From Parcubacteria group bacterium Licking1014_17 (GTDB lineage: Bacteria > Patescibacteriota > Minisyncoccia > 2-02-FULL-40-12 > IGHO2-01-FULL-4-A), in the NCBI GenBank assembly GCA_007376485.1, contig VMGJ01000001.1:41788-105787 (forward strand): DNA of 64,000 bases, written 5' to 3'. A model generated the notes under the pieces. It was not told where the DNA came from, ran no database searches, and saw only the letters and a list, made by a program, of their open reading frames with translations. Of the stretch, positions 5,333 through 63,291 are shown piece after piece (the first letter of the stretch is position 1; each line of letters begins with the position of its first letter). A program made the translations under genes and the position numbers.

Positions 5333-5475
5333 GTCAGGTAATATGTCTTTTCGCAGATATTCGGGCTTTCCAGCGAAGCCCTCACTTATAGCTCGCCAGT
5401 TTTCCCACACCGGCGCGCCGGTGGGGGACCAAGCAAAACTGGCTCGCTGTACTGCTCAAAGACATATTCCCTGAC
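5333..5475 (-). repeat. Structured intergenic element, subfamily A copy 1
   Basis: Core tcgcagat..gggctttccagcgaagccc..ccagtttt..accaagcaaaactggctcgctgtactgctc shared with four other copies. Outer stem gtcaggtaatatgtcttt / aaagacatattccctgac. Strand inferred from GA/GA tandems. Confidence 0.92.
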
Positions 5476-5569
5476 AATAATTTTAGTGCTCTTGTTTTCC
5501 TTACAGAGTTTAATTGTCCACATATTTCACATAAAAATTTAAATCTGTGGTATAATCCGCATTTAGAAT

Positions 5570-6031
5570 ATGGCTAATCAATATTTTACCCGCGAGGGTC
5601 TGGAGAAGTTGAAAGAGGAATTAAGAGAATGCGTGGAAAAAATACGCCCGGAGATTGCCGCTAAAATTTACGAAAGCAAGGAGCTTGGCGACATTTCGGA
5701 AAATGCCGAATTTGCCGAGGCGAAAAATGCGCAGGCGATGAACGAAGGCAAAATCGAAGAGCTGACGGAAATAATCAAAAATGCGGTAATCATAGAACAT
5801 GAAATCGGGCATCAAGATGTTATTGCCGTCGGCTCAACCGTGAAAGCGAAATCTTCGGAAGGCGTGAAAGTTTTTACGATTGTCGGCATAGCCGAAACCA
5901 ACCCAGCGGCGGGCTTGATTTCCAACCAATCGCCACTCGGCACGGCTTTTTTGGGCCACAAGAAGGGTGATAAAGTTGAAGTCAACACTCCCGGCGGCAA
6001 AACCGAATATAAGATTCTGGAGGTAAGCTAA
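5570..6031 (+). CDS. greA: Transcription elongation factor GreA
   Basis: GDISENAEF and ISNQSPLGTAFLG motifs. Confidence 0.96.
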   Translation: MANQYFTREGLEKLKEELRECVEKIRPEIAAKIYESKELGDISENAEFAEAKNAQAMNEGKIEELTEIIKNAVIIEHEIGHQDVIAVGSTVKAKSSEGVKVFTIVGIAETNPAAGLISNQSPLGTAFLGHKKGDKVEVNTPGGKTEYKILEVS

Positions 6032-6095
6032 TTTCTCCGTATAAAATCTATGATCTCATGGTGGGGTTTATTTTTTGCCGATAGCCCATCTGGTA

Positions 6096-6124
6096 TTGAC
6101 AGCCTTGATGTTTTATGCTATCAT
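6096..6124 (+). promoter_or_regulatory. Sigma70 promoter
   Basis: TTGACA-17 bp-TATCAT with TG extension. Confidence 0.7.
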
Positions 6125-6189
6125 TATAGCAAGTAATGTTCCTTGTAATTGTGATTCTAACACCAGCGTAGCTGGCAGGAGGTGTCAAA

Positions 6190-6414
6190 ATGGAAGGTCT
6201 TAGGAGATGGGTAAAAAGATGGATACCCAAAGTTGTCGCCGGAGCGGTGGCAATCGTGGGCTTGCCCCTGTGGGTATACTTTCCAATGTGCGAGTCACTG
6301 AGTTACGGTCTGTCGACAGCAGTTGATGCCCCGGTGGTGGCGGAGTACATCGTTTTCATGATGATATTCCCCGCCAGGGGCGTCCGGATCTTCGCAAACG
6401 CGCTTAGCCGTTAA
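6190..6414 (+). CDS. Small hypothetical membrane protein
   Basis: GGAGGTG SD, upstream promoter, downstream hairpin plus T-run (about 6442-6482), two hydrophobic segments. Confidence 0.6.
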   Translation: MEGLRRWVKRWIPKVVAGAVAIVGLPLWVYFPMCESLSYGLSTAVDAPVVAEYIVFMMIFPARGVRIFANALSR

Positions 6415-6522
6415 AGACGAACTTACCGAGCACAACACCCCAAGAGACCGCGGATTCCATATCTGGCGGTCTCTTTTATTTTACCTTGGTTTTTATTCTA
6501 GATTTGTTATTATTTACTTATT

Positions 6523-7992
6523 ATGCCCATTGATGAAATTCGCAGGAATAAGGAGGAAAAAGTCGCAAAATTGAAAAAATTGGGGATTGACCCGTTTCCG
6601 GCGGTTTCGGGCAGGGATACTGAAATTCGCGACGCGCTGGAAAATTTTGACTCGCTGGCGCAGGACAAAAAGGAAATTACCATTGCCGGCAGAATTATGG
6701 CAAAACGCGAGCACGGCGGTTCGCTGTTTGCCGATATTAATGACGGAAGCGGGAAACTGCAGATTTTGCTCAAAGAAGATGTTTTGGGCGCCGAAAAATA
6801 TTCCTTATTTAATGATTATTTTGATATCGGCGATTTCGCCGATTTTACGGGTATTCTTTTTGAGACCAAGCGCGGCGAGAAAACGCTGGAAGCCAAAGAT
6901 TTTAAACTTTTAACTAAAACCCTATTGCCTCTGCCGGAAAAATGGCACGGGCTGAAAGATATTGAGGAGCGGCTAAGAAAAAGATATCTGGATGTTATTT
7001 TTAATCCCGAAGTCAGGGAGATGGTGGAAAAAAGGGCAAAATTCTGGAGCGCGTTCAGAAAATTTATGACGGACAAGGGATTTCTGGAAGTGGAAACGCC
7101 GGTTTTGGAAAATACCGCCGGCGGCGCTGACGCCCGGCCGTTTATAACCCATCACAATGCGTTGGGTATAGATGTTTATCTAAGAATTTCCGGCGGCGAG
7201 CTCTGGCAAAAACGGCTGATGGTCGCCGGTTTTGAAAAAACTTTTGAAATCGGCAGGATTTTCAGAAACGAAGGAATAGACGATGAACATCTACAGGATT
7301 ACACCCAGATGGAGTTTTACTGGGCTTACGCCGACTACAAAAAAGGAATGAAGCTGGTTGAAGAAATGTATAAATACGTGGCGCGGGAAACTTTCGGCAC
7401 ACTGGAATTTGATATCAGGGGACATAAAGTTGATCTTGATAAAAAGTGGGAAATTTATGATTATACAGGAACTATTAAAGAGATGACCGGAGTTAACGTC
7501 TTAAATGTTGATTCAAAACAAGTGGAGGAAAAATTGCGGGAGTTGAAAGTTGAGTATAAAAATGAGGGCTTTAATCTGGAAAGGGCTATCGATTGCTTGT
7601 GGAAATACTGCCGAAAGAATATCGCCGGTCCCGGATTTTTAATAAACGCCCCGGTTGTTATTTCGCCTCTGGCTAAAAGGTTGTCCGATAATCCAAAGCT
7701 GACCCAGAAATTTCAGATAATTATCGCCGGCAGTGAAATGGGCAACGGTTACAGCGAGTTAAACGACCCGCTTGACCAGGCGGAAAGATTCAAAGAACAA
7801 CAGAAACTCCGCGAAGCCGGCGACGAGGAAGCCCAGATGTACGACAAGGAATTCGTGGAGGCGCTTGAATACGGAATGCCGCCCACCTGCGGTTTCGGCG
7901 TCAGCGAAAGATTATTCAGTTTTCTGATGAACAAACCGGCGCGCGAGTGCCAAATTTTTCCGCTGATGAGGCCGCGCGACAAGGAAAAATAA
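6523..7992 (+). CDS. lysS: Lysyl-tRNA synthetase (class II)
   Basis: PLPEKWHGL, FLEVETP, FRNEG and LEYGMPPTCGFG motifs. Confidence 0.97.
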   Translation: MPIDEIRRNKEEKVAKLKKLGIDPFPAVSGRDTEIRDALENFDSLAQDKKEITIAGRIMAKREHGGSLFADINDGSGKLQILLKEDVLGAEKYSLFNDYFDIGDFADFTGILFETKRGEKTLEAKDFKLLTKTLLPLPEKWHGLKDIEERLRKRYLDVIFNPEVREMVEKRAKFWSAFRKFMTDKGFLEVETPVLENTAGGADARPFITHHNALGIDVYLRISGGELWQKRLMVAGFEKTFEIGRIFRNEGIDDEHLQDYTQMEFYWAYADYKKGMKLVEEMYKYVARETFGTLEFDIRGHKVDLDKKWEIYDYTGTIKEMTGVNVLNVDSKQVEEKLRELKVEYKNEGFNLERAIDCLWKYCRKNIAGPGFLINAPVVISPLAKRLSDNPKLTQKFQIIIAGSEMGNGYSELNDPLDQAERFKEQQKLREAGDEEAQMYDKEFVEALEYGMPPTCGFGVSERLFSFLMNKPARECQIFPLMRPRDKEK

Positions 7993-7993
7993 A

Positions 7994-9307
7994 ATGTTGG
8001 ACATTGAATTCATAAAACAAAATAAAGAAAAAGTAGCGGAAGCCATCAAGAATAAAGGGGCTAAGGTTGATTTAGAGGAACTTCTCAAATTTGACGGCGA
8101 GAGGAGAAAATTGGTCGGCCGGATAAATGAATTGCAGAAAAAGAAAAACGAACTGGCCGAAGAAAATAAAAAACAGAAACCGACTCCTGAACTTATAGAC
8201 GAGGGCAGAAAAATCAAAGAGCAGATCGCCGAACTGGAATCGCATTTCACGCCGGTTGAGGAGGCATTCCTGCGACTATTGAGCCGGATGCCTAATATCC
8301 CGACCGACGACACGCCCATTGGCAAAGATGAAAGCGGGAATGTTATTTTGAGGAAAGTTGGCGAATTGCCGGAGTTTGGTTTCAAACCCAAGGAGCATTG
8401 GGAGCTTGGCGTGGAGCTTGATTTAATTGATACCGAAAAAGCGGGCGAGATTTCCGGCTCAAGGTTTGCTTATCTGAAAAGGGAATTAGTGCTCATGGAA
8501 TTCGCGCTAATTCAATATGCCATGCAATCACTGACAGATGAGAAAACAATCAAAAAGATAATTTCAAAATATGATTTGGATGTGCCGGCGACGCCATTCG
8601 TTCCCATAGTTCCGCCGGTGATGATAAAACCAGAAGTGATGCAAAAAATGGCGCGCTTGGAGCCAAGAGAAGAACGCTATCACATTCAAAGTGACGATTT
8701 GTATTTAATCGGCAGTGCCGAGCATACTCTCGGGCCACTGCATATGAATGAAATTTTAGAGGAAAAATTTCTGCCTATCAGATATCTTGGTTTCTCGACC
8801 GCTTTTCGCCGCGAAGCCGGTTCTTATGGAAAAGATGTAAAGGGGATTTTGCGGGTCCACCAATTTGACAAGCTGGAAATGGAATCATTTGCCTTGCCGG
8901 AACAGGGGATTGCCGAGCAGAATTTCTTCGTGGCGGTGCAGGAATATCTGATGAGCTTGTTGGAACTGCCATACCAAGTAGTCGCGATTTGCACCGGCGA
9001 TATGGGCGGTCCGGACGCGCGCCAGATTGACATTGAAACTTGGATGCCCGGACAAAACAAGTATCGGGAAACCCACACGGCAGATTATATGACGGATTAC
9101 CAATCCCGCCGGCTGAACACCAAAGTCAAACGTACCAACGGCAAATCAGAATTTATCCATATGAACGACGCCACCGCCGTCGCCATTGGCAGAACGATTA
9201 TCGCCATAATGGAAAATTATCAGACAAAAGAAGGAACAATAAAAATCCCGAAAGTTTTGCGGCCGTTTATGGGAGGAATTAAGAAAATCGCGAGTCGGCA
9301 TTCATAG
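7994..9307 (+). CDS. serS: Seryl-tRNA synthetase
   Basis: N-terminal coiled coil, FRREAGSYG, RVHQFDKLE and ENYQ motifs. Confidence 0.97.
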   Translation: MLDIEFIKQNKEKVAEAIKNKGAKVDLEELLKFDGERRKLVGRINELQKKKNELAEENKKQKPTPELIDEGRKIKEQIAELESHFTPVEEAFLRLLSRMPNIPTDDTPIGKDESGNVILRKVGELPEFGFKPKEHWELGVELDLIDTEKAGEISGSRFAYLKRELVLMEFALIQYAMQSLTDEKTIKKIISKYDLDVPATPFVPIVPPVMIKPEVMQKMARLEPREERYHIQSDDLYLIGSAEHTLGPLHMNEILEEKFLPIRYLGFSTAFRREAGSYGKDVKGILRVHQFDKLEMESFALPEQGIAEQNFFVAVQEYLMSLLELPYQVVAICTGDMGGPDARQIDIETWMPGQNKYRETHTADYMTDYQSRRLNTKVKRTNGKSEFIHMNDATAVAIGRTIIAIMENYQTKEGTIKIPKVLRPFMGGIKKIASRHS

Positions 9308-9318
9308 TTTTTGTTATT

Positions 9319-9476
9319 GCTCGAGCCAGCATGTTTTTCGGGACTGGATTTTCACCAGCGATGAAAATCCATCTGGTGAAGTCGCTGTCATTTGTCAAGA
9401 TATTCATTTCATTCAATCATTGACAAAACCATGCTGCCAGCGACTTCAACAGCCCTCAAAACACGCCGGCTCTCGC
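9319..9476 (-). repeat. Structured intergenic element, subfamily B copy 1
   Basis: ttcgggac-[hairpin, loop ccagcg]-tctggtga..tttgtcaa..ttgacaaa-accatgc-..tcaacagccctc; four further copies. Confidence 0.92.
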
Positions 9477-9495
9477 TGAATACCGCGAACTACTT

Positions 9496-9632
9496 GCGCC
9501 GCATTATTGCTTTAGGGCACTATTTGAAACGCTGATTGCATGGTCCTGAGCTCGTCGAAGGAATCAGTGGTTCAACAGAATGAGCCCGCTCGCTGGGCGG
9601 GCGAATGGTGACATAAAGCAATAATGCGGCGC
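9496..9632 (+). repeat. Structured intergenic element, subfamily C copy 1 (inverted relative to all other copies)
   Basis: 19-bp perfect outer stem gcgccgcattattgcttta / taaagcaataatgcggcgc, bulge GCATGGT, loop CGCTGG. Its reverse complement aligns with 51616-51774. Confidence 0.85.
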
Positions 9633-9649
9633 TACAACAGAATTTTGTA

Positions 9650-10456
9650 ATGAGGACCTATACTAAAAAATTTCAGGACAGATTACGCCTTGAGAAGCGG
9701 CGGAGATCCGTTGTTAAGCCGATTATTTATACGCTTGTTGTTTTAGCCGTTCTCGCCGCCGGCATTTTTGTCCTTTTCTTTTCCGATTTATTTTACGTGA
9801 AAGAAATAAATATTTCCGGAGCCGAAAAAATCCAGGGGCTCAATGTCGCCCAGTTCGTCAATAGTTGGCTGGACTCGGGGTTTATCGGGATTAAGCGCCG
9901 GAGCAACTCAATCATTTTCGGGCAGGACATGCTCGCGCGCTCTCTGATGAACCAGTCGGCGAGAATTTCTTCCGTAGTCATAAAAAGAGAGTCGCCGCAC
10001 AAGCTTGACATAACCGTTACCGAGCGTTCGCCGGCGGGCATTTGGTGTTACGAAACGAGCGGCAGCTGCTACTATTTTGACACTAACGGCTACGCTTACA
10101 GCAAAATCGGGGCCACATCAGGACACGTGTTTCTTAAGGTCAACGATGAGGTCAAGCAGGATACTGAAATCGGACGTCCCGTTTCGGACAATTCTTTATT
10201 CCAACTGGTAAAAAAGGTCAGTGATTCTTTAGCGCAGGCGAAATTTGCCATTACGGAGTTTGTTATTCCTAAAGATAATTTAAACGAACTGGATTTCAGA
10301 ACTAATCTTGGTTTTCTGGTGAAAATAGACACGACAGAGGATATAGACAGGCAAATTTCAGCCCTTAATCTTTTATTAAGCGAAAAACCTTATCTTCTCA
10401 AGCATCTTCTTGAATACATAGACCTCCGAATCCCGAGCAGGATTTATTACAAATAA
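9650..10456 (+). CDS. FtsQ/DivIB-like cell division protein
   Basis: Basic N-terminus, TM, POTRA-like VKEINISG..PHKLDITVTER, C-terminal EYIDLRIPSRIYYK. Confidence 0.8.
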   Translation: MRTYTKKFQDRLRLEKRRRSVVKPIIYTLVVLAVLAAGIFVLFFSDLFYVKEINISGAEKIQGLNVAQFVNSWLDSGFIGIKRRSNSIIFGQDMLARSLMNQSARISSVVIKRESPHKLDITVTERSPAGIWCYETSGSCYYFDTNGYAYSKIGATSGHVFLKVNDEVKQDTEIGRPVSDNSLFQLVKKVSDSLAQAKFAITEFVIPKDNLNELDFRTNLGFLVKIDTTEDIDRQISALNLLLSEKPYLLKHLLEYIDLRIPSRIYYK

Positions 10457-10463
10457 TCCCTGG

Positions 10464-10612
10464 TTTGCCGGAGAATATGTCTTTTCGCAGATGCTCGGGC
10501 TTTCCAGCGAAGTCCTCGCTTATAGTTCGCCAGTTTTCTCCTGCCGGCACACCGGCGGTAGACCAAGCAAAACTGACTCGCTGTACTGCTCAAAGACATA
10601 CTCCCTGGCAAA
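10464..10612 (-). repeat. Structured intergenic element, subfamily A copy 2
   Basis: Same core as copy 1. Outer stem tttgccggagaatatgtcttt / aaagacatactccctggcaaa. Confidence 0.92.
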
Positions 10613-10641
10613 AAATTGTGGTGTTAATTATAAGTTTCCTT

Positions 10642-14527: not shown

Positions 14528-16336
<1,809 letters not shown>

Positions 16337-16339: not shown

Positions 16340-16501
16340 ATTATTATGCCTTTTCGGGACTAAATTTTCGCCAGCGACGAAAATTTATCTGATGAGATTG
16401 CCTCTGTTTGTCAAGATATTTACCCCGACTATAAGTCGGGGCTCAATCATTGACAAAACCGTGCCAGAGGCAATCTCAACAGCCCTCAAAAGCACAATAA
16501 T
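16340..16501 (-). repeat. Structured intergenic element, subfamily B copy 3
   Basis: B core; perfect tgagattgcctctg / cagaggcaatctca stem; bulge accgtgc. Confidence 0.92.
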
Positions 16502-22938: not shown

Positions 22939-25900
22939 ATGAAAAGGATTGATTTAAAGAAGATCATCCATACTGGTCAGTTTTTTGCCGTGAAAAAGAT
23001 TTTCGCAACAAAAAGAACTCTCAAGCTGATTTTTGCCGCTGCCATAACAGCTACCGTCATATTTATTGTCATTTTCTCCTTTGTTAATGCCGGTCTTTTC
23101 AACTTCTATCCTCAAACCTGCCTTGGCGACTGGGAATACGCCGAAAACGCTTCCGGCAAACCCGACCTTCCTCCCGACGCCACTACCGAGAAATTTGATA
23201 AGAACAATTCCGCCTTCTTTTCCGGCGGTTACCGCAAGATATTCTGTGGCAACTTCAGAAGCAATGATGAATCCGGAGATAAAATCTTCCAGAAAGCAAA
23301 ATTGAGGTTGTCGTGGACACTCGTGCCGGACATCAACTCTGCGGTGCCTGTCATCGACCAATCCGAGTTTCAAAAAAATATACTGGATTATAGCGGGGAC
23401 GAAAAGATTATCGTGGTTCCCGATGAAGAAAAATCCGCTCCCGAAAAACAAGAGAATACGGTTTTACCTTCACCCGATGTAAGTTCATCAGCCGAAGAAA
23501 AAACACTGGAGCCGGTTCCGTCAGAATCACCCAGCCCTCAATCCGAATCGATTCCACCGACCGAGTCACCGCAATCTCCGGCGGAAGAGAATACCGCCCA
23601 AGAAAACGCTGATGTCGGCGAGCCGAGCAGTTTTAATGGAACATCTTTATTTAAAATGGGGCTTCTTGGCGTTTTCAGGACAGCGCTTACAGAGAATATC
23701 GGATCACTTCTGGGGTTAATAATGGAAATTAACAACAACAGCAGTTCCAGCTTGGAGGAAACGCTAACTCCTACAGAGCCCTCGGTTTTCATGCCCGAAA
23801 TAAGTATGGAGACGACTTCTGAAAAAGTTGAAACAAGTTCTACGCCCGCGAGCATTGCCGCCGGCGACGGCACGGCCTCAAAATCGGAATCCCCTCTGGA
23901 AAAAGAAATAATACCGCCAAAATCTTTGGATGATTTTCTTGAAATACTTTACAGCGTTGACGGCAAAAACTGGGAATCCATCGGCAATGTAAATCTTGAC
24001 AGTTTCAATAACGCCGAATTTGAGGTGCCTATTATTTCATGGAACGAACTGGCGAATCTCCAAATCAGAATCGGCGGGACGGGGCTGACGGACAGCGTGA
24101 GCGGAGTGTATTTGGACGGGATGTGGCTGGAAGTCAGTTATAGCGACAGTCAAGACGAGGTTGTTAGCGAGGATATAATGAGGGGATTGCCGAAAGTTCA
24201 GGTCAAAGACTCGGACGTTTTCAAATCAAAGAAAAAAGATTTTCGCTTTAACGAAGACGTGAAGTTTGAAATTAATCTTGGAAAAACGGCTTCCGGGAGC
24301 GTTGATGAAAACACGAAACCGCCAGCAACGCCTGAACCGTCGTCGCTTCTCAAAAATTCTTATAAAAATATTTTGGGCGCCGAGAGCGCCTTAGCCGCCG
24401 GCAGGATTGTTGAAGCCAGAGTATACAGCCCGACCGGCAAGCTGACAAATATAAAACCGTATATCAAGCAAGATACGGGGACTGAAACCGCGCAAATCTT
24501 TTTTTCGCCGCCCGGGCGAGCATACAAATCGGGCAAATACAAACTGGTCGTTGAGATTCTTCAGGATGACCGGGTAGTTGTGGCGGAACACGATTTTACC
24601 TGGGGTGTCCTTGCTTTGAACGCCAATAAGTCCATCTATATACCGGGCGAGTCGGCTTATCTTCAGTTCGCTTCGTTGAGCAATATAGGGCACACTTTGT
24701 GCGACAGCAATCTTGAGCTCATTATCACTCCGCCAAAAGGGCCAGAGTGGGTATTAAGCGTAGAGGACGGCGATATAAAAAGGAGCGACACCTGCGGACC
24801 CAATAATTATACCGACAAACCGGATTACTACGCGTATTACACGCCCGAATACACGGGCGCTTACGGACTCACACTGAAAAATTTGGATAACGGGAATGAA
24901 ATAACCGACTCCATTCAAGCCGACGGTTTGGTTGATATGGATGTGGAACGCGTCGGTGCGACGCGCATTAATCCGTTTTTGGGACAGAACTATTTTACGA
25001 CCATTAATATCAAAGCAGGTCAGCCTTTTGAGGGAGAAATTGTGGATACGCTCCCAAAGGGATTTGTGGTTATGGGCAGTTCCGATTACATTGTCCGCAA
25101 AACACCGACGGGCGACGTAGAAGTAGTATGGAGAAAAATTTTATTGCGTGGGGACACGGCTATCCTGACCTATGAATATGACCCGGCTGATATCTCGCCG
25201 GAGCTGTTTCTTCTGGGTCCGTTAAAATTTATCGCGAAGTCGGATCCGCTATCGTCTTTTTTTCAGGAAGCGCGCCAGTGGCAACTGGCGTCGGATTATT
25301 CCTGCGTCGCAAAAGCGACCGGCGCCTGGAGTGCCAGCGGCACTTGGACAACATGTAATTCAACCACACCCCAACCGACGGATACGGTTACAATCGCCAC
25401 AACATATGTTGTGACATTGGATACTTCGGCTACCATCGCCGGTCTTAGCCTTGCAAACACAGCTCAACTGAATCATCCCGGCACAAATGCCCTAACTGTG
25501 AATGGTTCAGTTGCCCTTACACCGCCGCCGACAGTCAATTTTAATCAATGGAACATTGCGGGAGGTACCGCGACCGTAACCGGCGCGATAACGTGGGGTG
25601 CCGGTGGCAGTTCAAAGGTATCTAAGATTTTAATTACAACCGGAACATTAAATGCCAGTGGCGGATTATCATTCGGCTGCCTTAATTACCCGGCAAGCTG
25701 CCTTATTGATATGTCGGGGGGCGCGGGCACTTTAAATTTAAGCGGCGCCATAACAAGCGTAACCAAAGGGCAACTAACGGCCGGGACCACCAGCACTTTC
25801 GTATACGCTGACCAGAGTGCCGACCAAACAATACAAATGGCTTGGGGCGGCGGCAGTTACAATAATCTTGGAATTAATAACGGCGCTAAGGTGGCAACCG

Positions 25901-28900
25901 TAGCCGAAAATATAACGACATCAAACGTGAGCGGTAGTATAACAGTTACCAGTGGCACTTTCAACGCCAGTAATGTTACGATTGCGGGCAACAGCGGCAA
26001 AACATTTGAGGTTGATAACGGAGCCACCTTCACGATGAGCGGCAATACAACTTTTCCGACCGGCTTTTCCACGTTTACTTTTCAGAGCACGAGCACCACA
26101 AAATACGGACAGAGTGTGGATTCGGATATTTCGGCGCAGAGCTATGGTTATCTGATAGTCAGTCCTGTTGCCGACCCCTCCAGCCACAGCGCTGATTTTT
26201 ATCTTGCTTCGGGAACCATTTCCACCGCCAGTGCTTTTATTGTCGCTTTGGGTTCCGCTGCCACTTCAGTTTTTGTTAATGCCGACACGAACGACCCGAC
26301 TCTTGATATAAACAGTTATTTGTCCATAGGCGCGAGCACGACTTTTCAGGCTTCAAATTCCGGAACTTTCACCATCAACGGCAGTTTGTTTAACGCCGGC
26401 ACGTTTACCCACAATAGCGGCACCGTCACTTTTGACAGCACCGCGAGCGGCAGGGGGATAAATATGAACGGCAGTTCACTATATAACTTGACGATTAACG
26501 GTTCCGGCGGCGAATGGTCGTCGCTCACAAATATGCTGACAGTAGCCAATGATTTAATCTTGACCGCCGGAACTTTAAACAATGCTTCCGGCAGTGCGGA
26601 CATTGAAGTCAACGGAAACGTTTCCTGTAACGGCACCTGCGGCACAGTCAGTTTGACAGCCGGAAAGTTTACCCAGAAAGTTGCCGCCGACAAAAATTTC
26701 GGAACGTCAGTGGCTGTTGCCACTGCCTGGACTTTCAATGCCTTGCATTTCACCAACAGCAGCGGCACCGACAGGATAATCACAACCAGTACCACCGGCA
26801 CCGGAACCATCACCGTAACAGCTTCCATGTCCATCGGCGTTTTCAGCGCCACCAACAAAGCCACGCTTGACGCCGACCACAGAACCTGGATTTTAAGCGG
26901 AAGTAATGAAGCCGATGCACACATTCCTCTTTCCATTGACGCCACCAAAGGAGCTCTAACCGCTCACGCATCGATTTTCCGCTACACCGGCAGTTCCACT
27001 ACCACAATCGAGGCGGCAACCTACTACAATCTTGAAGTAAAACCCGGTGGTGCCGTGACCCATACTTTCAAAGCGGGGACGACGACGGCTTACACTTTAA
27101 CCGCGGGAGACGGATCCAATAGCGGAACAATAACCACCAATACCAATAGCACGACCCTTGATATTGGTTTTGGAGGAGTTTCTATAGCTGCCTATGGCAC
27201 TCTCGTCGCCCATGCCAGCAATGCTTTTACTGTTGAAGGTTCATGGACAAACGCCGGCACTTTTACTCATAGTAGCGGCACGGTAACTTTTGACGGAACG
27301 ACGGTAGCTTCAATTCCAGTAACAACCGGCGGCAGTTCTTTCAATAATTTAATGATAGCGGGAGCGGGTAACTTCGCATTGCAGGATTCAACGACAATCG
27401 CCGGCGATTTGAAAGTAAACAGCGGCACCTTTTCTGGTGGCGTTGTCACGACTGTTAACGGCGACGTAACTTGTGTTACCACCTGCGGCACGATAAACTA
27501 TGCCAGCGGTATTTTTATACAAAACGTTGCCGGAAACAAAGCCTTCGGCACTACCGCCGGTACTGCTACGTGGACATTTAATGTTCTTCACTTTGCCGCC
27601 AGTGACGGTACTGACAGGGTGATTACCGCCAGTTCGGGTGGCACCGGAACCATCACCGTCACTGCCTCCATGTCCATCGGCGTATTCAGCGCCACTAACA
27701 AAGCTACGCTTGATGCCGGCAACAGAACATGGATTTTAAGCGGAAGCGACTCAAACGGTGATTCTCCCCTATCTATAGACGCCACTAAGGGCGCCTTAAC
27801 CGCTAACACGTCAACTTTCCGTTATACCGGCAGTTCAGCCACTACGATTGAGGCGGCTACTTATTACAATCTTGAAGTAAAACCCGGCGGCGCCGTGACC
27901 CATACTTTCAAGGCGGGGACAACAGGAGCAAATCATTTACTTACTATTGGCGACGGAGCTAATAGCGGAGTCGTAACAGCAAATACCAACAGTACTATTT
28001 TGGATGTAGGCGACGGCACAAGCGGCAGCGGCGTTTCAATCGCCGCCAGCGCCACGCTGACGGCCAACGCCAGCAACGGTTTCACGGTTTACGGCTCATG
28101 GACAAACGCCGGCACGTTTACCCACAGCAACGGCACGGTTACCTTTGACGGGGATGATGACTTAATTAGCTTTACCCTTACTCCGGCAAGCAGTCCATTC
28201 TACAATCTGACCGTAAATAATACGGGAGGCGCAATATGGACATTACAAAGCGGTCAGACTCTTATTGTAGCTAACGATTTATATATTAACGGCGGGACAC
28301 TGAACGACGATAGCGCTACTGCCATGGTTTTTAACGGAAACGTAACCTGTTCGGTGACCTGCGGTATTATCAACACCTCTGCCAATGTTATCCAAAACGT
28401 TGCCGCCAATAAAGTCTTCGGCACTACTGCCGGCACCGCCGCCTGGACTTTCAAAGCCCTTCATTTTGCCAACAGCAATGGAACCGACAGATTAATCACT
28501 ACCAGTTCGGGTGGCTCCGGAACCATCACCGTCACTGCCTCCATGTCCATTGGCGTTTTTAGCGCCACCAATAAAGCTACGCTTGATGCCGGCAATAGAA
28601 CTTGGATTTTAAGCGGGAGCGACTCAAACAGTGATCCCCCCTTAACTATTGACGCCTCCAAAGGGGTTTTGACTGCCAATACATCTACATTCAGATTTAC
28701 CGGTAGTTCCGCCACCACAATCGAACAAGCGACTTATTACAACCTTGAAGTAAAACCCGGCGGCGCCGTGACTCATACTTTCAAAGCGGGAACAACAGCG
28801 GCTTACGGGCTAACCGCTGGAGATGGAGTCAATAGCGGAGTCATAACGGCCAACACCAACAGCACAATCCTTGATATAGGTTTTGGGGGAGTTTCCATAG

Positions 28901-31227
28901 CCGCCAACAACACCCTTATTGCCCATGCCAGCAATGCTTTTACCTGCGAAGGTTCCTGGACAAACGCCGGCACATTCACCCATAGCAACGGCACGGTAAC
29001 TTTTGACGGAACTGGTTCCCACACAATTAATAACGGGGATAAAACCATTAATTCTTTTTACGGTCTAATAATTAATAAGGCGGGTGGAGTTTGGGATGTT
29101 ACGAGCAATGATATTGTAGTTCAATACTCACTTACAATAACAGCGGGAACTCTTGATTTAAACGGGCAGGGGTTATCTGCTAGTCTGACTTTGGTCAATG
29201 ATGACACTCTGCGTCTTCAAGGCGGTGAAACGATAACTGGATTAACTATGGACACAAATTCGGGGACAGTTGAATATGATGGCACTACCGGATACACCGG
29301 GCTTAAGGCAGGAAATGAATATTTTAATCTGAAATTTAGCGGTTCCGGAGGTTCTTGGACGTTAAATCATGACTTAGTCGTAAATGCCACTTTTGCTATT
29401 ACAAACGGAACAGTGGATGCGTCCGGTTCAAATTATGATATCAGCGTCGGCAAAAGCTGGAATAATGCCGGAACGTTCACCGCCCAGCAGGGTGCGGTCA
29501 CTTTTGACGGCAATTTTAATGTGGCGACATGGGGTATCACAACTGGCAGTAGTCCTTTTTATGATTTGGTAATAATCGGACCCGACCCCTATATGATCAG
29601 TAGCGACATTACTGTCCAAAACGATTTGGACGTGAACGGAAGCACCTTAAACGGCTTTGGTTCAAATGTCATGACCGTCAATGGAAATGTTACCTGCGTC
29701 ACTACTTGTGGCACTATTTCTGGATTAAATCTTTTCCAGACTGTCAGCGCAAACAAAGTCATTGGGCCCGTTACCGGCACGAACGACTGGTCGTTTGGTT
29801 TTCTTCATCTGTCCACTTCCGGAGGTTCGGACAGAACCATTACCGTGAACAGCGGAGGTAGCGGGGCATTTGCCGTGGCTTCCTCCATGTCCATCGGTGT
29901 TTACAGCGCTTCCGCGAAGACCATTCTTGACGCGGACAATAAGACATTTATATTGAACGGCAGCGACGAAGCCGATGGAGATGTTCCGTTCACCGTCGGC
30001 GCCAACGGCACTTTTACGCAAAATACTTCCACTTTCAGATTCGCCGGCACTTCGGCGACCACCGTTGCTGCGGGAACTTATTATAATTTGGAAATAAAAC
30101 CGGGCGGAACAGGCACTCACACCATAGCAAGCGGCGCTTTGAAAACGAATAATAATTTTGTAATTGGCGACGGGACGCATACCGGCTCGGTAAACGCTAC
30201 GACAAACGACCCCAATATCAACGTGGACGGAAGCTTTTCAATCGCGGCGAGTTCCGAGTTTGTTGCTTCTGACGCCGGAACATTTTCAATAGCCAAAAAC
30301 TTTTCGAATTCCGGCGCATTTACCCATAGCAATGGCACGGTAACTTTTGACTCACTTAACAACAGCACCGTCAGCGGCTCTAATACAATCTTTTATGGTT
30401 TATCGATGGCGACTGACAACAAAAAAATGAGGTTCACTGCCGGGCAGACGTTTGAAACTGACGGATTGATGACGCTTGGCGGTTCCGATGCCGACAATCA
30501 GGTTCAAATCGTTTCTACCGCCTCTGATTCGCAATGGTTTATAAATCACCAAGGGACCGAAAGCGTGAACTATACGTACGTCCATGATTCGGGTTGCGAC
30601 GCTTCCTCAACGGACATAACAGTTACTACGGGTACCGACGGCGGCAACAACGGGCTATGCTGGGTGTTCGATTATAATATAACGGTTGCGCTCTGTTCGG
30701 ATCCCGACATTGATTTTGGAACTTTGGCGCCGGGCAGCGGCAGGGTTACCAGAACCTCGTGTATTTCGATTAACACCAACAATCCCAGCGGTTATTCGAT
30801 CAGCGCCGGAAGGGACCGGGCAAGTCCGGCAACCACGCTTGCCTCCGAGGGGGATACAAGCATTAATATTTCCGATACGCTGAACGGCATTGATGTTTTT
30901 GACGGATTATCCAGTTGCACCGCCAGCCCCAATATAACTTCGCCGTGGGTTGAAGGTGCGTCAACAGGCCTCGGCTATGTTCTTTATAGAGCCGATGTCG
31001 GTAAAAGCACAACATGCTGGGGCACGGGGACAAACGAAACCGATTCCGCGAACCGATATGCTGCCTTGCCGGCTTCAAATGGACCGGCGGATGTATTTTT
31101 GAATGTGCCCGTAAATTCTCCGAATCCTTCCTATTCTTCGGTCGGCTGGAGTTTGGATATCCCCACAAATCAAATTCCCACTTCTTACGGCGGTATGGTG
31201 ATTTATTCAATTACCGCTAATCCTTAA
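22939..31227 (+). CDS. Giant (2762 aa) surface adhesin with internal repeats and a C-terminal WxL/pilin-like domain
   Basis: N-terminal TM, P/S/E linker, T/G/S/N-rich repeats; C-terminus similar to the 33669-34433 product. Confidence 0.88.
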   Translation: MKRIDLKKIIHTGQFFAVKKIFATKRTLKLIFAAAITATVIFIVIFSFVNAGLFNFYPQTCLGDWEYAENASGKPDLPPDATTEKFDKNNSAFFSGGYRKIFCGNFRSNDESGDKIFQKAKLRLSWTLVPDINSAVPVIDQSEFQKNILDYSGDEKIIVVPDEEKSAPEKQENTVLPSPDVSSSAEEKTLEPVPSESPSPQSESIPPTESPQSPAEENTAQENADVGEPSSFNGTSLFKMGLLGVFRTALTENIGSLLGLIMEINNNSSSSLEETLTPTEPSVFMPEISMETTSEKVETSSTPASIAAGDGTASKSESPLEKEIIPPKSLDDFLEILYSVDGKNWESIGNVNLDSFNNAEFEVPIISWNELANLQIRIGGTGLTDSVSGVYLDGMWLEVSYSDSQDEVVSEDIMRGLPKVQVKDSDVFKSKKKDFRFNEDVKFEINLGKTASGSVDENTKPPATPEPSSLLKNSYKNILGAESALAAGRIVEARVYSPTGKLTNIKPYIKQDTGTETAQIFFSPPGRAYKSGKYKLVVEILQDDRVVVAEHDFTWGVLALNANKSIYIPGESAYLQFASLSNIGHTLCDSNLELIITPPKGPEWVLSVEDGDIKRSDTCGPNNYTDKPDYYAYYTPEYTGAYGLTLKNLDNGNEITDSIQADGLVDMDVERVGATRINPFLGQNYFTTINIKAGQPFEGEIVDTLPKGFVVMGSSDYIVRKTPTGDVEVVWRKILLRGDTAILTYEYDPADISPELFLLGPLKFIAKSDPLSSFFQEARQWQLASDYSCVAKATGAWSASGTWTTCNSTTPQPTDTVTIATTYVVTLDTSATIAGLSLANTAQLNHPGTNALTVNGSVALTPPPTVNFNQWNIAGGTATVTGAITWGAGGSSKVSKILITTGTLNASGGLSFGCLNYPASCLIDMSGGAGTLNLSGAITSVTKGQLTAGTTSTFVYADQSADQTIQMAWGGGSYNNLGINNGAKVATVAENITTSNVSGSITVTSGTFNASNVTIAGNSGKTFEVDNGATFTMSGNTTFPTGFSTFTFQSTSTTKYGQSVDSDISAQSYGYLIVSPVADPSSHSADFYLASGTISTASAFIVALGSAATSVFVNADTNDPTLDINSYLSIGASTTFQASNSGTFTINGSLFNAGTFTHNSGTVTFDSTASGRGINMNGSSLYNLTINGSGGEWSSLTNMLTVANDLILTAGTLNNASGSADIEVNGNVSCNGTCGTVSLTAGKFTQKVAADKNFGTSVAVATAWTFNALHFTNSSGTDRIITTSTTGTGTITVTASMSIGVFSATNKATLDADHRTWILSGSNEADAHIPLSIDATKGALTAHASIFRYTGSSTTTIEAATYYNLEVKPGGAVTHTFKAGTTTAYTLTAGDGSNSGTITTNTNSTTLDIGFGGVSIAAYGTLVAHASNAFTVEGSWTNAGTFTHSSGTVTFDGTTVASIPVTTGGSSFNNLMIAGAGNFALQDSTTIAGDLKVNSGTFSGGVVTTVNGDVTCVTTCGTINYASGIFIQNVAGNKAFGTTAGTATWTFNVLHFAASDGTDRVITASSGGTGTITVTASMSIGVFSATNKATLDAGNRTWILSGSDSNGDSPLSIDATKGALTANTSTFRYTGSSATTIEAATYYNLEVKPGGAVTHTFKAGTTGANHLLTIGDGANSGVVTANTNSTILDVGDGTSGSGVSIAASATLTANASNGFTVYGSWTNAGTFTHSNGTVTFDGDDDLISFTLTPASSPFYNLTVNNTGGAIWTLQSGQTLIVANDLYINGGTLNDDSATAMVFNGNVTCSVTCGIINTSANVIQNVAANKVFGTTAGTAAWTFKALHFANSNGTDRLITTSSGGSGTITVTASMSIGVFSATNKATLDAGNRTWILSGSDSNSDPPLTIDASKGVLTANTSTFRFTGSSATTIEQATYYNLEVKPGGAVTHTFKAGTTAAYGLTAGDGVNSGVITANTNSTILDIGFGGVSIAANNTLIAHASNAFTCEGSWTNAGTFTHSNGTVTFDGTGSHTINNGDKTINSFYGLIINKAGGVWDVTSNDIVVQYSLTITAGTLDLNGQGLSASLTLVNDDTLRLQGGETITGLTMDTNSGTVEYDGTTGYTGLKAGNEYFNLKFSGSGGSWTLNHDLVVNATFAITNGTVDASGSNYDISVGKSWNNAGTFTAQQGAVTFDGNFNVATWGITTGSSPFYDLVIIGPDPYMISSDITVQNDLDVNGSTLNGFGSNVMTVNGNVTCVTTCGTISGLNLFQTVSANKVIGPVTGTNDWSFGFLHLSTSGGSDRTITVNSGGSGAFAVASSMSIGVYSASAKTILDADNKTFILNGSDEADGDVPFTVGANGTFTQNTSTFRFAGTSATTVAAGTYYNLEIKPGGTGTHTIASGALKTNNNFVIGDGTHTGSVNATTNDPNINVDGSFSIAASSEFVASDAGTFSIAKNFSNSGAFTHSNGTVTFDSLNNSTVSGSNTIFYGLSMATDNKKMRFTAGQTFETDGLMTLGGSDADNQVQIVSTASDSQWFINHQGTESVNYTYVHDSGCDASSTDITVTTGTDGGNNGLCWVFDYNITVALCSDPDIDFGTLAPGSGRVTRTSCISINTNNPSGYSISAGRDRASPATTLASEGDTSINISDTLNGIDVFDGLSSCTASPNITSPWVEGASTGLGYVLYRADVGKSTTCWGTGTNETDSANRYAALPASNGPADVFLNVPVNSPNPSYSSVGWSLDIPTNQIPTSYGGMVIYSITANP
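26380..29030 (+). repeat. About three tandem intragenic repeats of ~280-290 codons (boundaries approximate)
   Basis: GTITVTASMSIGVFSATNKATLDA recurs at 26803, 27646 and 28519 (spacing 843 and 873 bp), with a diverged fourth copy near 29870. Confidence 0.9.
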
Positions 31228-51615: not shown

Positions 51616-51774
51616 GCGAATAATTAGCGGTTTTTATCATCATTTACCCTGCCAGCGTCAGGATTCATTCCGTCAGAGCTGTGGATTTGGCTTGAAGTTT
51701 AGGAAGATATTATACTTCAAGCCAACCGTGCAATCCACAGCTCTGAACGGTGCTAAAAACCGCTAGTTATTTGT
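51616..51774 (-). repeat. Structured intergenic element, subfamily C copy 2
   Basis: Loop ccagcg, bulge accgtgc, stem cagagctgtggatt / aatccacagctctg, outer stem tagcggttttta / taaaaaccgcta. Confidence 0.85.
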
Positions 51775-51781
51775 TTTTTTT

Positions 51782-53751: not shown

Positions 53752-53886
53752 GCTAATCGCTTTGACGGACGTAAATTTTCCCGGCGAGAAAATTTACTCT
53801 CGTGATGTTGCTGTTGTTTGTCAAGACATAAAGCCGTTGACAAAACCATGCCAACAGCAACATCAAGAGCCGACAAAGCGATTAGC
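53752..53886 (-). repeat. Structured intergenic element, subfamily B copy 5
   Basis: Stem tgatgttgctgttg / caacagcaacatca; loop ccggcg; bulge accatgc. Confidence 0.9.
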
Positions 53887-57498: not shown

Positions 57499-57716
57499 CT
57501 GGCGGCAAACTGCTTTTTCGCAGATGCTCGGGCTTTCCAGCGAAGCCCTCGCTTATACCTCGCCAGTTTTCCCCCACCAGCACGCTGGTGAGGGACCAAG
57601 CAAAACTGGCTCAGTGTACTGCTCAAAGACATATTCCCCAGTCAAAACAGCGGCAATCTCAATAGCCCTCAAAGCATATTGGCTCACTGCACCGCTCAAA
57701 AGCGGTTTGCCGCCAG
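57499..57716 (-). repeat. Structured intergenic element, subfamily A copy 3, composite with B and A fragments
   Basis: A core (57518-57624) plus a B-type end and a second A-type end, inside outer stem ctggcggcaaactgctttt / aaaagcggtttgccgccag. Confidence 0.88.
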
Positions 57717-57751
57717 CTCGGGTTGTAATTTTACCTTTTCCTTTATAAAAT

Positions 57752-58393: not shown

Positions 58394-58407
58394 GCAGTCG
58401 CCATTTT

Positions 58408-59805: not shown

Positions 59806-59892
59806 CAGATATTAGCACGGCTTTTGATTCAAAAAAAGTTGTCCACAATTGAAGCGCACGGAAACGTAAGTTATATTTATTGTTAAAACATT

Positions 59893-60306
59893 ATGGACGT
59901 CATGGATAAACAAGTAGTGATTTTATTTATTATTGTTTTTATCGTAATTACTTTTTCGGTTTTTGGGGCGAGTAATTTTATTGAGAATCTACATTTCGGC
60001 GGAGACAGCGCCAATGCCTCGGATAACACAGGCATGAAAATTATTTTGACCAACGACGGGATTTTTCCTGACGTCGTAACGATAAAATCCGGCGGACGTG
60101 CCGTTTTCCAAAATTCCGACACGCAGCCACATTCAATCGGGCTTGAAAAAAATGGCGATGCCAGTATTTGCGCCGGTCTGGCGAACGTTATTATTCAAAG
60201 CGGCAGATATTATTCAAATACTTTTCACGATAAAGGTATTTGCCGTTTTTTTGACCGTTCCGGCTCTGCAACGGCCGGTTTCAGGGGAGAAATTATTGTG
60301 AAATAA
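59893..60306 (+). CDS. Cupredoxin-like exported protein
   Basis: FPDVVTIKSG..VFQNSDTQPHSI..GEIIVK; copper ligands look incomplete. Confidence 0.7.
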   Translation: MDVMDKQVVILFIIVFIVITFSVFGASNFIENLHFGGDSANASDNTGMKIILTNDGIFPDVVTIKSGGRAVFQNSDTQPHSIGLEKNGDASICAGLANVIIQSGRYYSNTFHDKGICRFFDRSGSATAGFRGEIIVK

Positions 60307-60330
60307 AAATCTGCGATCAAATACCATAAA

Positions 60331-60474
60331 CTGGTTGGGAATATATCTTTTCGCAGATGCTCGGGCTTTCCAGCGAAGCCCTCGCTTATACCTCGCCAGT
60401 TTTCCCGCACTATATCAGTGCGGGGCCAAGCAAAACTGGCTCGCTGTACTGCTCAGAGATATATTTCCAGCCAG
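60331..60474 (-). repeat. Structured intergenic element, subfamily A copy 4
   Basis: A core; outer stem ctggttgggaatatatcttt / agagatatatttccagccag. Confidence 0.92.
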
Positions 60475-60545
60475 CCATCATGCATCGACTCATAGTCGGA
60501 TTATTATGTTGGTTTACTATTATTAGCATATGCTATAATAAAAAG

Positions 60546-61847
60546 ATGATGAAAGCCGGCATTATTTGCTTAGTTTTGTTCGTGTTCGCGGTGTTTTGGG
60601 CGCCATCGGCTTTTGGCGTCACCAATGTTCAGCAGGAGATCGACATCAGAAACAAACAAATCGAAGAGATCCAGAAACAAATTGACCAGTATCAAAAAGA
60701 AATTGATGCCAACAGCAGTATGGCGCGCACTCTGTCGAGCGAGATTGGCAAACTAAACGCGCAAATCGGTAAAATTCAGCTTGAAATAAAAAGCCTTGGC
60801 ATTGCCATAGAGCAGACCGGGATGGAAATTCAGAATACATCCGGGCAAATTCAGGAACTGGAATCGCAATTGAATTTGCATAAGGCGGCAATGGGGTGCT
60901 ACCTGGCTTCTTTAAATGAACTGGATAGCCGCAGCCTGACCGAAATTCTGTTCAAACATCAGCGGCTCTCGGAATATTTCAATCAGATAAAAGAGCTGGA
61001 GGACACCCAAAACAATTTACAGTTGGCTATCGTCGAAATAAAAGGGATCAGGAGCGATTTAGAGGATAAAAAGCTGACTTTAGAAAATAAAGAGAACGAA
61101 CTTCAGGATTTAAAACGGTTCCAGGTATCCGCTAAATCCAGTTTGGAACAAAACAAAACAGTTAAAAATAAAATTTTAGTTGACACGAAGGGGAAGGAAG
61201 TGAAATTTCAGGAGCTTGTTACAAAAGCCCAGAAAGATATTGAGGCGATTAAAGGGCAAATCGGGTATTTGCTCCAGCAGGGCATTACCGTTGAGGATGC
61301 CATCAAATACGGGGAACTGGCGGCAATGCGCTTGGGAATCAGACCGGCGTTCTTAATTGCCTTGTTGGATGTAGAATCGGGCTTGGGTAAAAATGTCGGC
61401 ACGGGTAACTGGATGGACGATATGTATAATTGCTATTTGAAATTAGGAAAAGAATCCAGAGCTGCCCAGGAAAAGGATGCCTTTTTTGCGATTGTAAACA
61501 AGCTGGGTATCGATCCGAATAGCGTAAAAGTTTCCCGGGAACCGAATTACGGTTGCGGCGGCGCTATGGGACCGGCGCAGTTTATTCCGACGACATGGCT
61601 GGCGTATGAAGCTCAAGTTGCCAATCTTACCGGGCATACTTTGCCGAACCCATGGAATATAGAAGACGCATTTACAGCGGCGGCGATAAAACTGGCTAAA
61701 GGTGGCGCCGCCGACAAAACCAGAACGGGCGAGATAAGAGCCGCGAAAGCGTACATAAGCGGCAGTTCGACATGCAGTTCGAAAATCTGCAATTATTATT
61801 CGAATATAATTTTGAATAAGGCGGCCATCATCGAGAGCAATCTCTAA
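60546..61847 (+). CDS. Coiled-coil protein with C-terminal lytic transglycosylase (SLT_2/MltB-like) domain
   Basis: Signal peptide, long coiled coil, VESGLG and GAMGPAQFIPTTW motifs. Start moved to ATG 60546. Confidence 0.85.
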   Translation: MMKAGIICLVLFVFAVFWAPSAFGVTNVQQEIDIRNKQIEEIQKQIDQYQKEIDANSSMARTLSSEIGKLNAQIGKIQLEIKSLGIAIEQTGMEIQNTSGQIQELESQLNLHKAAMGCYLASLNELDSRSLTEILFKHQRLSEYFNQIKELEDTQNNLQLAIVEIKGIRSDLEDKKLTLENKENELQDLKRFQVSAKSSLEQNKTVKNKILVDTKGKEVKFQELVTKAQKDIEAIKGQIGYLLQQGITVEDAIKYGELAAMRLGIRPAFLIALLDVESGLGKNVGTGNWMDDMYNCYLKLGKESRAAQEKDAFFAIVNKLGIDPNSVKVSREPNYGCGGAMGPAQFIPTTWLAYEAQVANLTGHTLPNPWNIEDAFTAAAIKLAKGGAADKTRTGEIRAAKAYISGSSTCSSKICNYYSNIILNKAAIIESNL

Positions 61848-63109
61848 TGTTTACCAGAAAAAACATAATAATAGCGGTTGTCGTTATTTCAATTGCGTTG
61901 GGAGTTCTGATCAGAAACGCGGCAAAAAGCAGATCGTGGGCGATTAACGAAATAAATGTCAAAAACAGCAACGCCTCCGCGCAAAATACGAGTGTTTTCG
62001 GAAAACCGAAAATAAATCTTCCCGCGAAAATCGCGGAGGGCGTTGAACTGTTGAAAAAATCGGCGCCGATTGAAGTCGAGAAGGGTTTAAAAAAGGGCAA
62101 GTCCGTTGACAGGCGGCAGATTGCGCTGGCGATTCTCGATACGAACACGGGAGCGGTGTTTGAAAAGCGCTATTGGCTCAACAAGAACGAGCTTGAAATG
62201 TACGGCGACTCGGGGATGGTAAAACTGGAGCCGATTGACCCGAAAAATGATTTAATTATCGAGGTCAAATACTGGAACGGCTATAACTCTTTTCTGGATG
62301 TGTCTAATAAAGACGGCATGATTGTCGTCGCCAATAAATACACGCTTTCCAAAACCAGCCTCGGTTCGTTGATAGACGATAAAACTAATGACCGGCAGGA
62401 TATTGTTTACGTGCCTTATTCGGAATCTTTGCAAACCAAAGAAATGATTAAGGCCGGTAAAAGATACCTGACAAACACGGTTGAGCGGGCAATGGACGAT
62501 TTGGAGCAAAGAAAGGTGGTTTCAAAAGCTGAACCGGATAAATTAGTGACGAAGGTGTTTGACAAGAATTTTATAAAAAGCATCGCGCTGGTTGAGCATA
62601 TCGACCCAAGTGAATTTTATCTTGCGGATGACGGCGGCAAGGAGCTTGTTGAGCGCGTTTTGACGATAATCGGCGCCAACAAAAATCTGGCGTATAAATA
62701 CTCCGGTTCGCCGGCTGGGGCTTACGGCATGGCGCAGTTTATTGAACCAACTTATGATGCCATAGCCAACGCTTATCCCGAAGCCGGTTTGATAAAAGAT
62801 TTCAGGCAGGGCATGGCTGACCACGTGAACGCCATTAAAGCGATGTATCTTTATTTTGACATTCATAAAAAAGAAATTGACGTTCAGATAGCCGAGAAAG
62901 GACTTACGGATAAAAAGGGGATTGAAGAAGAAATGCTTGCCGCCACTTACAACGGCGGTCCCGGCAATGTCCTTGAATCGGTCAGGCAATTTGGCTTTTC
63001 GTGGATTTCAAAGCAAAGCGAACTGTCGCCGTCAAAATCCATAATGAAAGACGAAACCCTGACCTACGTCAAAAAATTCCGAGCGGTGAGAAGTTTATCG
63101 GTGTTTTAG
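61847..63109 (+). CDS. Membrane-anchored SLT-like transglycosylase-fold protein
   Basis: SPAGAYGMAQFIEPTY, ATYNGGPG and ETLTYVKK motifs. Confidence 0.8.
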   Translation: MFTRKNIIIAVVVISIALGVLIRNAAKSRSWAINEINVKNSNASAQNTSVFGKPKINLPAKIAEGVELLKKSAPIEVEKGLKKGKSVDRRQIALAILDTNTGAVFEKRYWLNKNELEMYGDSGMVKLEPIDPKNDLIIEVKYWNGYNSFLDVSNKDGMIVVANKYTLSKTSLGSLIDDKTNDRQDIVYVPYSESLQTKEMIKAGKRYLTNTVERAMDDLEQRKVVSKAEPDKLVTKVFDKNFIKSIALVEHIDPSEFYLADDGGKELVERVLTIIGANKNLAYKYSGSPAGAYGMAQFIEPTYDAIANAYPEAGLIKDFRQGMADHVNAIKAMYLYFDIHKKEIDVQIAEKGLTDKKGIEEEMLAATYNGGPGNVLESVRQFGFSWISKQSELSPSKSIMKDETLTYVKKFRAVRSLSVF

Positions 63110-63156
63110 CTATATACTAGCTGTTCGCCATTACTTTTTTGCACCACTTGCTTTAA

Positions 63157-63291
63157 CTGAAATAAACACAGTTTTTCGCAGATGCTCGGACTTTCCAGCG
63201 AAGTCCTCGCTTATAGCTCACCAGTTTTCCGCTAATGAGCGGACCAAGCAAAACTGGCTCGCTGTACTGCTCAAAACTATGTTTATTTCGG
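63157..63291 (-). repeat. Structured intergenic element, subfamily A copy 5
   Basis: A core with compensatory ggact/agtcc change; different outer stem ctgaaataaacacagtttt / aaaactatgtttatttcgg. Confidence 0.92.

Follow-up and report, generated by a model that had tools for sequence, protein, structure and literature searches.

A superfamily of palindromic, non-autonomous repeats in Patescibacteria predicted to fold into three-way junctions

What are the structured repeats that lie between the genes of a small Parcubacterial genome, and how did they get there? The stretch of DNA analyzed here (the window) is 64,000 nt of Parcubacteria group bacterium Licking1014_17 (contig VMGJ01000001.1, positions 41,788 to 105,787) and contains 12 such elements. 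The genome (G000) is streamlined, at 790 kb, and some of the copies lie within its core operons, groES-groEL among them. An initial annotation had proposed that the 12 form one superfamily with a shared fold, kept either as a protein-recognized module or as a non-autonomous mobile element. We found that the elements are real palindromic, non-autonomous repeats. They belong to a family that spans the Patescibacteria: further taxonomic families and classes of this phylum contain copies that share both motifs. Based on modeled folds, the family comprises non-coding palindromes of 130-190 nt with a three-way junction predicted on one strand, the folding strand. We lean, with modest confidence, toward the notion that these are mobile elements that fold as single-stranded DNA (ssDNA) and are moved in trans by a strand-specific enzyme encoded elsewhere.

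The elements share an outer stem (P1), a hairpin (P2) with a conserved loop, and a long stem (P3) with a one-sided 7-nt bulge. Read on the folding strand, the loop is YCGCTGG and the bulge GCWYGGY, and both lie at near-fixed distances from the junction. P1 is the most variable part and differs from copy to copy, and the junction nucleotides are weakly conserved in the class-wide set. Sequence identity was 63-85% within subfamilies and 47-67% between them, and folding z-scores ranged from -5.7 to -11.7 (8 strands folded). Among 63 model-aligned matches, 89.8% of cells were paired, compared to 57.1% in shuffled and 41-48% in slid alignments, figures that are not a probability because the model shaped the alignment and the sequences share ancestry. 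Double changes numbered 633, against 192 in the control, and were seen in 28 of 29 pairs. The proposals of a single superfamily, of strong stem covariation and of conserved unpaired motifs held. In 64 matches from relatives, found by the model with no motif filter, the bulge was kept in 55 and the loop in 60. Elements from across the class had the same architecture with new stems, and both motifs persisted through total stem turnover across classes; class-wide motif conservation was partly imposed by the search pattern itself.

All 12 elements were found in the window where the initial annotation had placed them. They are listed below with associated features (window coordinates; strand is the folding strand).

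5316..5329, strand -, end remnant of subfamily B, adjoining the A copy at 5333
5333..5475, strand -, subfamily A copy downstream of a penicillin-binding protein (PBP) gene; loop 5370-5376, bulge 5428-5434
9319..9475, strand -, subfamily B copy downstream of serS, with TTGACA within the distal P3 stem
9496..9632, strand +, subfamily C copy, reversed and tail to tail with the 9319 copy; bulge GCATGGT 9538-9544, loop 9590-9596
9545..9561, strand +, small hairpin that makes up the P3 tip of subfamily C and belongs to a hairpin family also found free-standing elsewhere in the genome
10464..10612, strand -, subfamily A copy between convergent genes, downstream of an ftsQ-like gene
14528..14690, strand -, subfamily B copy in the groES-groEL spacer
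16340..16500, strand -, subfamily B copy 3 nt past the groEL stop codon
49707..49866, strand -, subfamily B copy upstream of an HlyD gene, loop variant
51616..51775, strand -, subfamily D copy between HlyD and ABC ATPase genes (the second "C" copy of the initial annotation)
51709..51714, strand -, TATAAT at the P3 tip of the D copy at 51616, in which only the first T is paired and ATAAT is unpaired; a conserved feature of the D/E/F branch
53752..53886, strand -, subfamily B copy downstream of macB, loop variant
57499..57643, strand -, subfamily A copy between divergent genes (peptidase S24/LexA-like; unknown)
57648..57683, strand -, end remnant of subfamily B, adjoining the A copy at 57499
60331..60473, strand -, subfamily A copy upstream of an SLT_2 gene
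63157..63291, strand -, subfamily A copy downstream of an SLT gene

Most details of the earlier description were confirmed: the loop read as CCAGCG on the other strand (CCCGCG in the 49707 copy and CCGGCG in the 53752 copy), the bulge RCCRWGC in all 12 elements, and four B-type P3 arms, each with a matching partner arm. Ten copies start 3-47 nt past a + strand stop codon, including those in groES-groEL and in the HlyD/ABC/MacB operon; the two exceptions are the 57499 copy, between divergent genes, and the 9496 copy. The division into three subfamilies needed correction. The superfamily stands, but the "C" group does not: the 9496 and 51616 copies are 61% identical, inside the between-subfamily range, and represent two different subfamilies. 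The 9496 copy had also been listed in the wrong orientation; it is reversed, with CCAGCG on the - strand. The flanking genes in the window are ordinary housekeeping genes of the candidate phyla radiation (CPR; 44 proteins scanned). The SLT_2 reading frame (60357-61847) runs open through the A copy, giving a spurious 65-amino-acid (aa) N-terminal extension before the likely start. The window also encodes a 2762-aa protein (22939-31227) with internal repeats of ~850 nt.

The elements are numerous in the genome. A strict structural descriptor (loop hairpin plus bulged stem) had 40 matches in G000, 39 elements and one chimera, and none in each of 10 dinucleotide shuffles of the same genome, thereby excluding chance. 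A covariance model built from 41 G000 copies gave 61 matches in G000 (150 of 240 candidates scored; 41 are the training sequences), and 55 copies account for 8.1 kb, or about 1% of the genome. The genome-wide search that had been proposed thus extended the family, as did the search of relatives: the model matched in 37 of 60, with up to 34 matches per genome (50 candidates scored per genome). This is an undercount, since one relative (G001) scored 0 yet holds a divergent copy. A motif-only pattern run over 400 genomes of the class returned mostly noise. Five genomes stood far above the reversed-pattern control: G217 (17 vs 0), G540 (16 vs 0), G471 (16 vs 1), G314 (11 vs 0) and G268 (21 vs 4). 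With a stricter pattern, 16 of 401 phylum genomes had a total of 22 matches, compared to 2 in controls. Reading of the predicted folds suggests that 18 of the 22 are true elements; 7 genomes outside the class contain 13 of these. The covariance model was insensitive across the phylum (2 of 150 genomes, 20 candidates scored per genome). Named records that matched carried mostly Yanofskybacteria, Paceibacteria/Minisyncoccia or Saccharibacteria labels. Among the matches listed, those outside the CPR lacked the second half of the element. Five scans of viral contigs yielded no true element among the matches listed, and phages and plasmids gave no match. The initial annotation had recognized no named family, and no Rfam model matched at the gathering threshold in the window or in 20 diverse loci.

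We found that the selected fold is on the strand opposite to the one proposed. The initial annotation had assigned the fold to the CCAGCG strand; on that strand, isolated mismatches in P1 are mostly A·C (52, vs 13 G·T; 53 G000 copies). On the folding strand of 176 elements, the wobble pair G·T outnumbered A·C in distinct contexts both in P1 (146 vs 66) and in P2 (16 vs 4). The folding strand was more stable than its complement in 125-126 of 133 elements of the first set and in 49 of 49 of the class-wide set, and conserved TC/TC mismatches of the CCAGCG strand become tandem G·A pairs on it. The folding strand was antisense to the flanking genes at 33 of 42 co-directional sites in G000. With 14 candidates within called open reading frames (ORFs) set aside, it was antisense to the upstream gene at 67 of 86 co-directional sites (67 vs 19; the sites are kin and not independent). 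Thus, the elements are not 3'-untranslated-region RNA structures of those genes. The median distance from stop codon to loop was 52 nt. Comparison of replication and transcription as the cause of this orientation gave 9 vs 5 in discordant cases, where the skew signal was too noisy.

Does the folding strand fold as DNA or as RNA? Two-by-two internal loops were dominated by C-GA-G/C-GA-G (61) and T-GA-G/C-GA-A (38). In the class-wide set, GNA triloops numbered 6 on one strand and 0 on the other, and GNRA/UNCG tetraloops 0. Tandem G·A pairs and GNA triloops have both been described as stable in DNA, according to the relevant portion of PMC10085684. Three features together point to folding as DNA: tandem G·A pairs, missing RNA tetraloops, and palindromes inserted at G^C steps (below). 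The elements could instead be structured RNAs made from the folding strand (antisense, protein-binding or a small ribozyme), kept for or against the host and held together by a tertiary contact between loop and bulge. An RNA would be in keeping with wobble pairs of the G·U type on a single strand, with a three-way junction whose loop and bulge keep a fixed spacing, and with GC(N)YGG motifs that we take to be D-loop-like. We consider it improbable given the lack of GNRA or UNCG enrichment, the weak conservation at the junction and the lack of an Rfam match; moreover, of 55 copies, only 2 have a U-tract characteristic of intrinsic terminators after P1 on the sense strand, and only 1 has one on the opposite strand.

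One branch of the family carries a promoter-like sequence that also bears on this question. Among 64 hits in relatives, TATAAT was at the P3 tip in 32, all of the D/E/F branch, with the first T paired in 29 of the 32 and six different stem sequences; subfamilies A, B and C lack it. Promoters in G000 look like a bare TATAAT 6-16 nt upstream of ATG (leaderless). Because TATAAT-like hexamers in G000 peak 6-20 nt ahead of start codons and no -35 consensus accompanies them, a -10 box by itself likely serves as a promoter in this genome. That TATAAT is the promoter box of the genome favors an RNA, but initiation at the internal TATAAT would start the transcript in the middle of the fold. Three other readings of promoter-like sequences were rejected: TTGCAT...TATAAT as a sigma-70 -35/-10 pair, with its spacer of 12-13 nt; the TTGACA of B copies as a -35, with no matching -10; and an autonomous copy whose ORF would follow the tip TATAAT, found in none of 91 genome-scan loci (among the matches listed) or 11 metagenome loci.

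The proposed non-autonomous mobility was borne out by empty orthologous sites in relatives. The groES-groEL spacer was at most 35 nt long in 10 of 29 relatives, held a different subfamily in one and unrelated repeats in several. At one orthologous site, G004 and G016 have an element and G024 has none. A second contained different elements in G028, G031, G037 and G049 and was empty in G051; in G028 and G031, two cores lay inside similar outer stems. The elements are extragenic palindromes gained and lost among relatives, as are REP/REPIN sequences (repetitive extragenic palindromes and the mobile units they form). There was no consistent target duplication: the longest word shared by the flanks averaged 4.07, compared to 3.82 +/- 0.08 in shuffled pairs, a small excess with no fixed length. 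A divergent, ancestral-type copy (G000:C9:56600-56850; L002, L694) is, unlike other copies, flanked by a direct repeat of ~30 bp of the 3' end of the upstream gene.

The motifs themselves are insertion sites. Five G000 copies carry an unrelated palindrome at the G^C step of the loop (4 events); a 26-27-nt palindrome had landed there three times, in both orientations. In relatives, three different insert families occupied the G^C step of the bulge (L224, L266, L329, L227/L327/L743). One insertion (L691) sits at the end of the loop rather than at the G^C step, and two insert junctions are readable in a shifted register. These foreign palindromes suggest that the motif bases are exposed in the chromosome.

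Elements were also nested in one another, with A-inside-B composites at several G000 loci. In one element (L639, G217:C66), the left and right outer arms came from two different subtypes, which suggests a crossover between copies. Such mosaic arms, the swapped cores within similar P1 stems, the A-inside-B composites, the duplication of disrupted copies and the lack of a linked enzyme (below) would all be expected if the palindromes were passive, needing no enzyme of their own and spreading through host recombination, gene conversion and template switching, with motifs simply inherited and pairing partly due to arm-to-arm correction. However, copying between arms would remove any asymmetry confined to one strand, and three such asymmetries have been retained: the tandem G·A pairs, the bulge and the wobble bias of P1. 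Both motifs outlast total stem turnover across classes, and entry into empty sites requires a cut-and-join step. We therefore judge passive spread unlikely.

If an enzyme moves the elements, which one is it? HUH/RAYT (REP-associated tyrosine transposase), IS200/IS605 and GIY-YIG proteins had been suggested as partners, and we found no link between any of these and the elements. The genomes are drafts, and an enzyme not found does not equal an enzyme absent. Y1/RAYT genes were found in 31 of 61 genomes, unlinked to the elements: an element lay beside 0 of 30 Y1 loci in one set and 2 of 12 in another, each separated by an intervening gene. Many of these genomes contain RAYT-like Y1 genes (205-250 aa), each flanked by short palindromes of its own (L398-L423, L633-L643). 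GIY-YIG genes were present in 60 of 61 genomes regardless of element load, and elements were near 2 of 74 GIY-YIG loci, neither directly linked. G000 has four stand-alone GIY-YIG genes of ~85 aa (C9:55425, C6:86163, C10:9494, C10:1628), three with short shared flanks and one behind a tRNA with its own hairpins.

Reverse transcriptases (RTs) are ubiquitous in the order and were found in 50 of 61 genomes. This frequency would suit a non-autonomous retroelement, in which an mRNA copy (the CCAGCG strand, at 3' ends) is reverse-transcribed and the cDNA, corresponding to the folding strand, integrates behind stop codons. Such a route would fit the orientation of the elements and the tight spacing of copies to stop codons, and the ~30-bp repeat of a gene's 3' end around the divergent copy. 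In contrast, RTs were equally common in element-free genomes and were not found in 3 of 5 element-rich class members (G217 and G314, both 100% complete, and G540). Target duplication is not general, and the arm order and strand of the elements are unlike those of retron msr-msd. We regard a retroelement as quite unlikely.

Several observations weigh against an ssDNA element moved by an enzyme. Among 331 flanking ORFs there was no recurring gene for a mobile enzyme; the largest clusters were DnaK, ABC ATPases and SerRS. Neither Pfam nor a profile made from relatives' proteins detected a Y1 transposase in G000, and there was no GIY-YIG match in element-rich G314 or G540. Scans of genomes, metagenomes and viruses yielded no ORF-bearing copy among the matches listed. 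Some copies have multiplied despite a disrupted loop or bulge (C5:98289, C5:80649; L093, L097, L272), indicating that intact motifs are not strictly needed for copying. In P3a the wobble bias is missing (20 distinct contexts with G·T and 23 with A·C in 176 elements), GNA triloops were nearly balanced between strands in the first 133-element set (7 vs 5), and tandem G·A pairs are stable in RNA too.

Even so, our results are most consistent with a non-autonomous element that folds as ssDNA. The element would extrude from the duplex, or fold while the DNA is transiently single-stranded; in the D/E/F branch, opening of the tip TATAAT by RNA polymerase could start extrusion. The loop and bulge may then be bound by an ssDNA nuclease or transposase that acts in trans, in the manner of HUH or Ssn enzymes, and would cut and transfer the strand to gene ends. 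Lineages could retain the fold by stepwise compensatory change via G·T wobbles, and most surviving copies would have as their folding strand the template for transcription, which is the strand least often single-stranded. This orientation is analogous to that of attC sites in sedentary integrons, as these are treated in part of PMC5371416. A bolder form of the proposal, which we offer tentatively and regard as doubtful, is a new class of mobile DNA: a branched ssDNA element, of an age that would cover several Patescibacteria classes, with two unpaired GC(N)YGG motifs and an undescribed strand-specific enzyme as their reader (not a RAYT, Ssn or integrase), in one branch of which a bare -10 at the tip triggers extrusion by RNA polymerase. 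Conservation of a branched ssDNA fold and its two invariant unpaired motifs throughout a phylum implies that their reader is just as old and is none of the known transposase partners. The motifs are a ready bait for this enzyme, which could be a new site-specific ssDNA tool, and the repeats offer substrates for rearrangement in CPR genomes.

Other repeats share the same genomic niches. In relatives, at least 2 other long-stemmed, structured repeat families occupy the same intergenic slots (L263, L264, L257, L736, L738; L048, L051, L070), and the outer stem of one resembles that of the present family at the same site. The tip hairpin of subfamily C also forms tandem arrays with a 24-nt period, of 5 and 3 units (G000:C5:64684-64780 and C5:82577-82625). 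GC-rich inserts behind tRNA-Thr and tRNA-Pro (G000:C9:61501 and C11:110808) repeat the tRNA tail and appear to be a family separate from the Y-shaped elements.

How do these elements compare with known systems? Our literature searches, which covered sources other than subscription journals and supplements, found no description of the family. What is new here is that its range is phylum-wide, that copies from different classes are joined into a single superfamily, that the G^C hotspot and the tip TATAAT are recognized, and that four candidate movers are excluded. In the portions of PMC5371416 and PMC5737381 that deal with them, attC sites have a similar geometry: they follow stop codons, fold on the antisense strand, conserve structure and unpaired bases over sequence, and are oriented in a way that would limit folding. 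An unusual attC-like site of a tyrosine recombinase is nonetheless very improbable. The R'/R'' cores are missing (RYYYAAC/GTTRRRY pairs in 0 of 176 elements), and the present elements are branched rather than single hairpins and dispersed among housekeeping genes in conserved operons, with no cassette array. G000 has a single Xer-like recombinase, and we rejected this protein as the mover because an element lay directly behind it in only 2 of 31 loci, which we treated as chance. Just upstream of the promoter of the Xer-like recombinase gene is a recurring TGTGCGAC/ATGTCGCA motif (L724-L743), possibly a dif-like or operator site.

REPINs, as described in parts of PMC3116915 and PMC3733652, are likewise extragenic, palindromic and non-autonomous, insert into one another and are proposed to move in trans as a folded single strand. 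The present elements differ in that they are not doublets of short REPs and form a three-way junction with conserved loop and bulge. GTAG, GGAG or CGTC tags were near the ends of only 13-25 of 176 elements, and the palindromes carried by the RAYT-like genes of relatives are not the present element. The NTS/SRM repeats of Ssn are also dispersed DNA hairpins recognized as ssDNA (PMC11893778, in part), and small stand-alone GIY-YIG genes are common in these genomes. However, the SRM consensus matched 0 of 133 elements, and the present elements are 5 times longer, branched, and do not flank GIY-YIG genes. The bcr1 repeats of the Bacillus cereus group, miniature inverted-repeat transposable elements (MITEs) and enterobacterial repetitive intergenic consensus (ERIC) sequences resemble them in a cruciform-like fold of ~150 nt, compensatory changes and non-conserved positions, going by the sections of PMC3184786 on these repeats. 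There, bcr1 and MITEs are given direct-repeat target duplications and MITEs fixed terminal inverted repeats. The present elements, with their varying outer stem, have no conserved terminal inverted repeats shared with an insertion sequence (Y1 transposases were looked for in G000; other insertion sequence families were not searched). Structures in ssDNA more complex than a hairpin, such as the one predicted here, are called rare in the part of PMC5737381 that discusses them.

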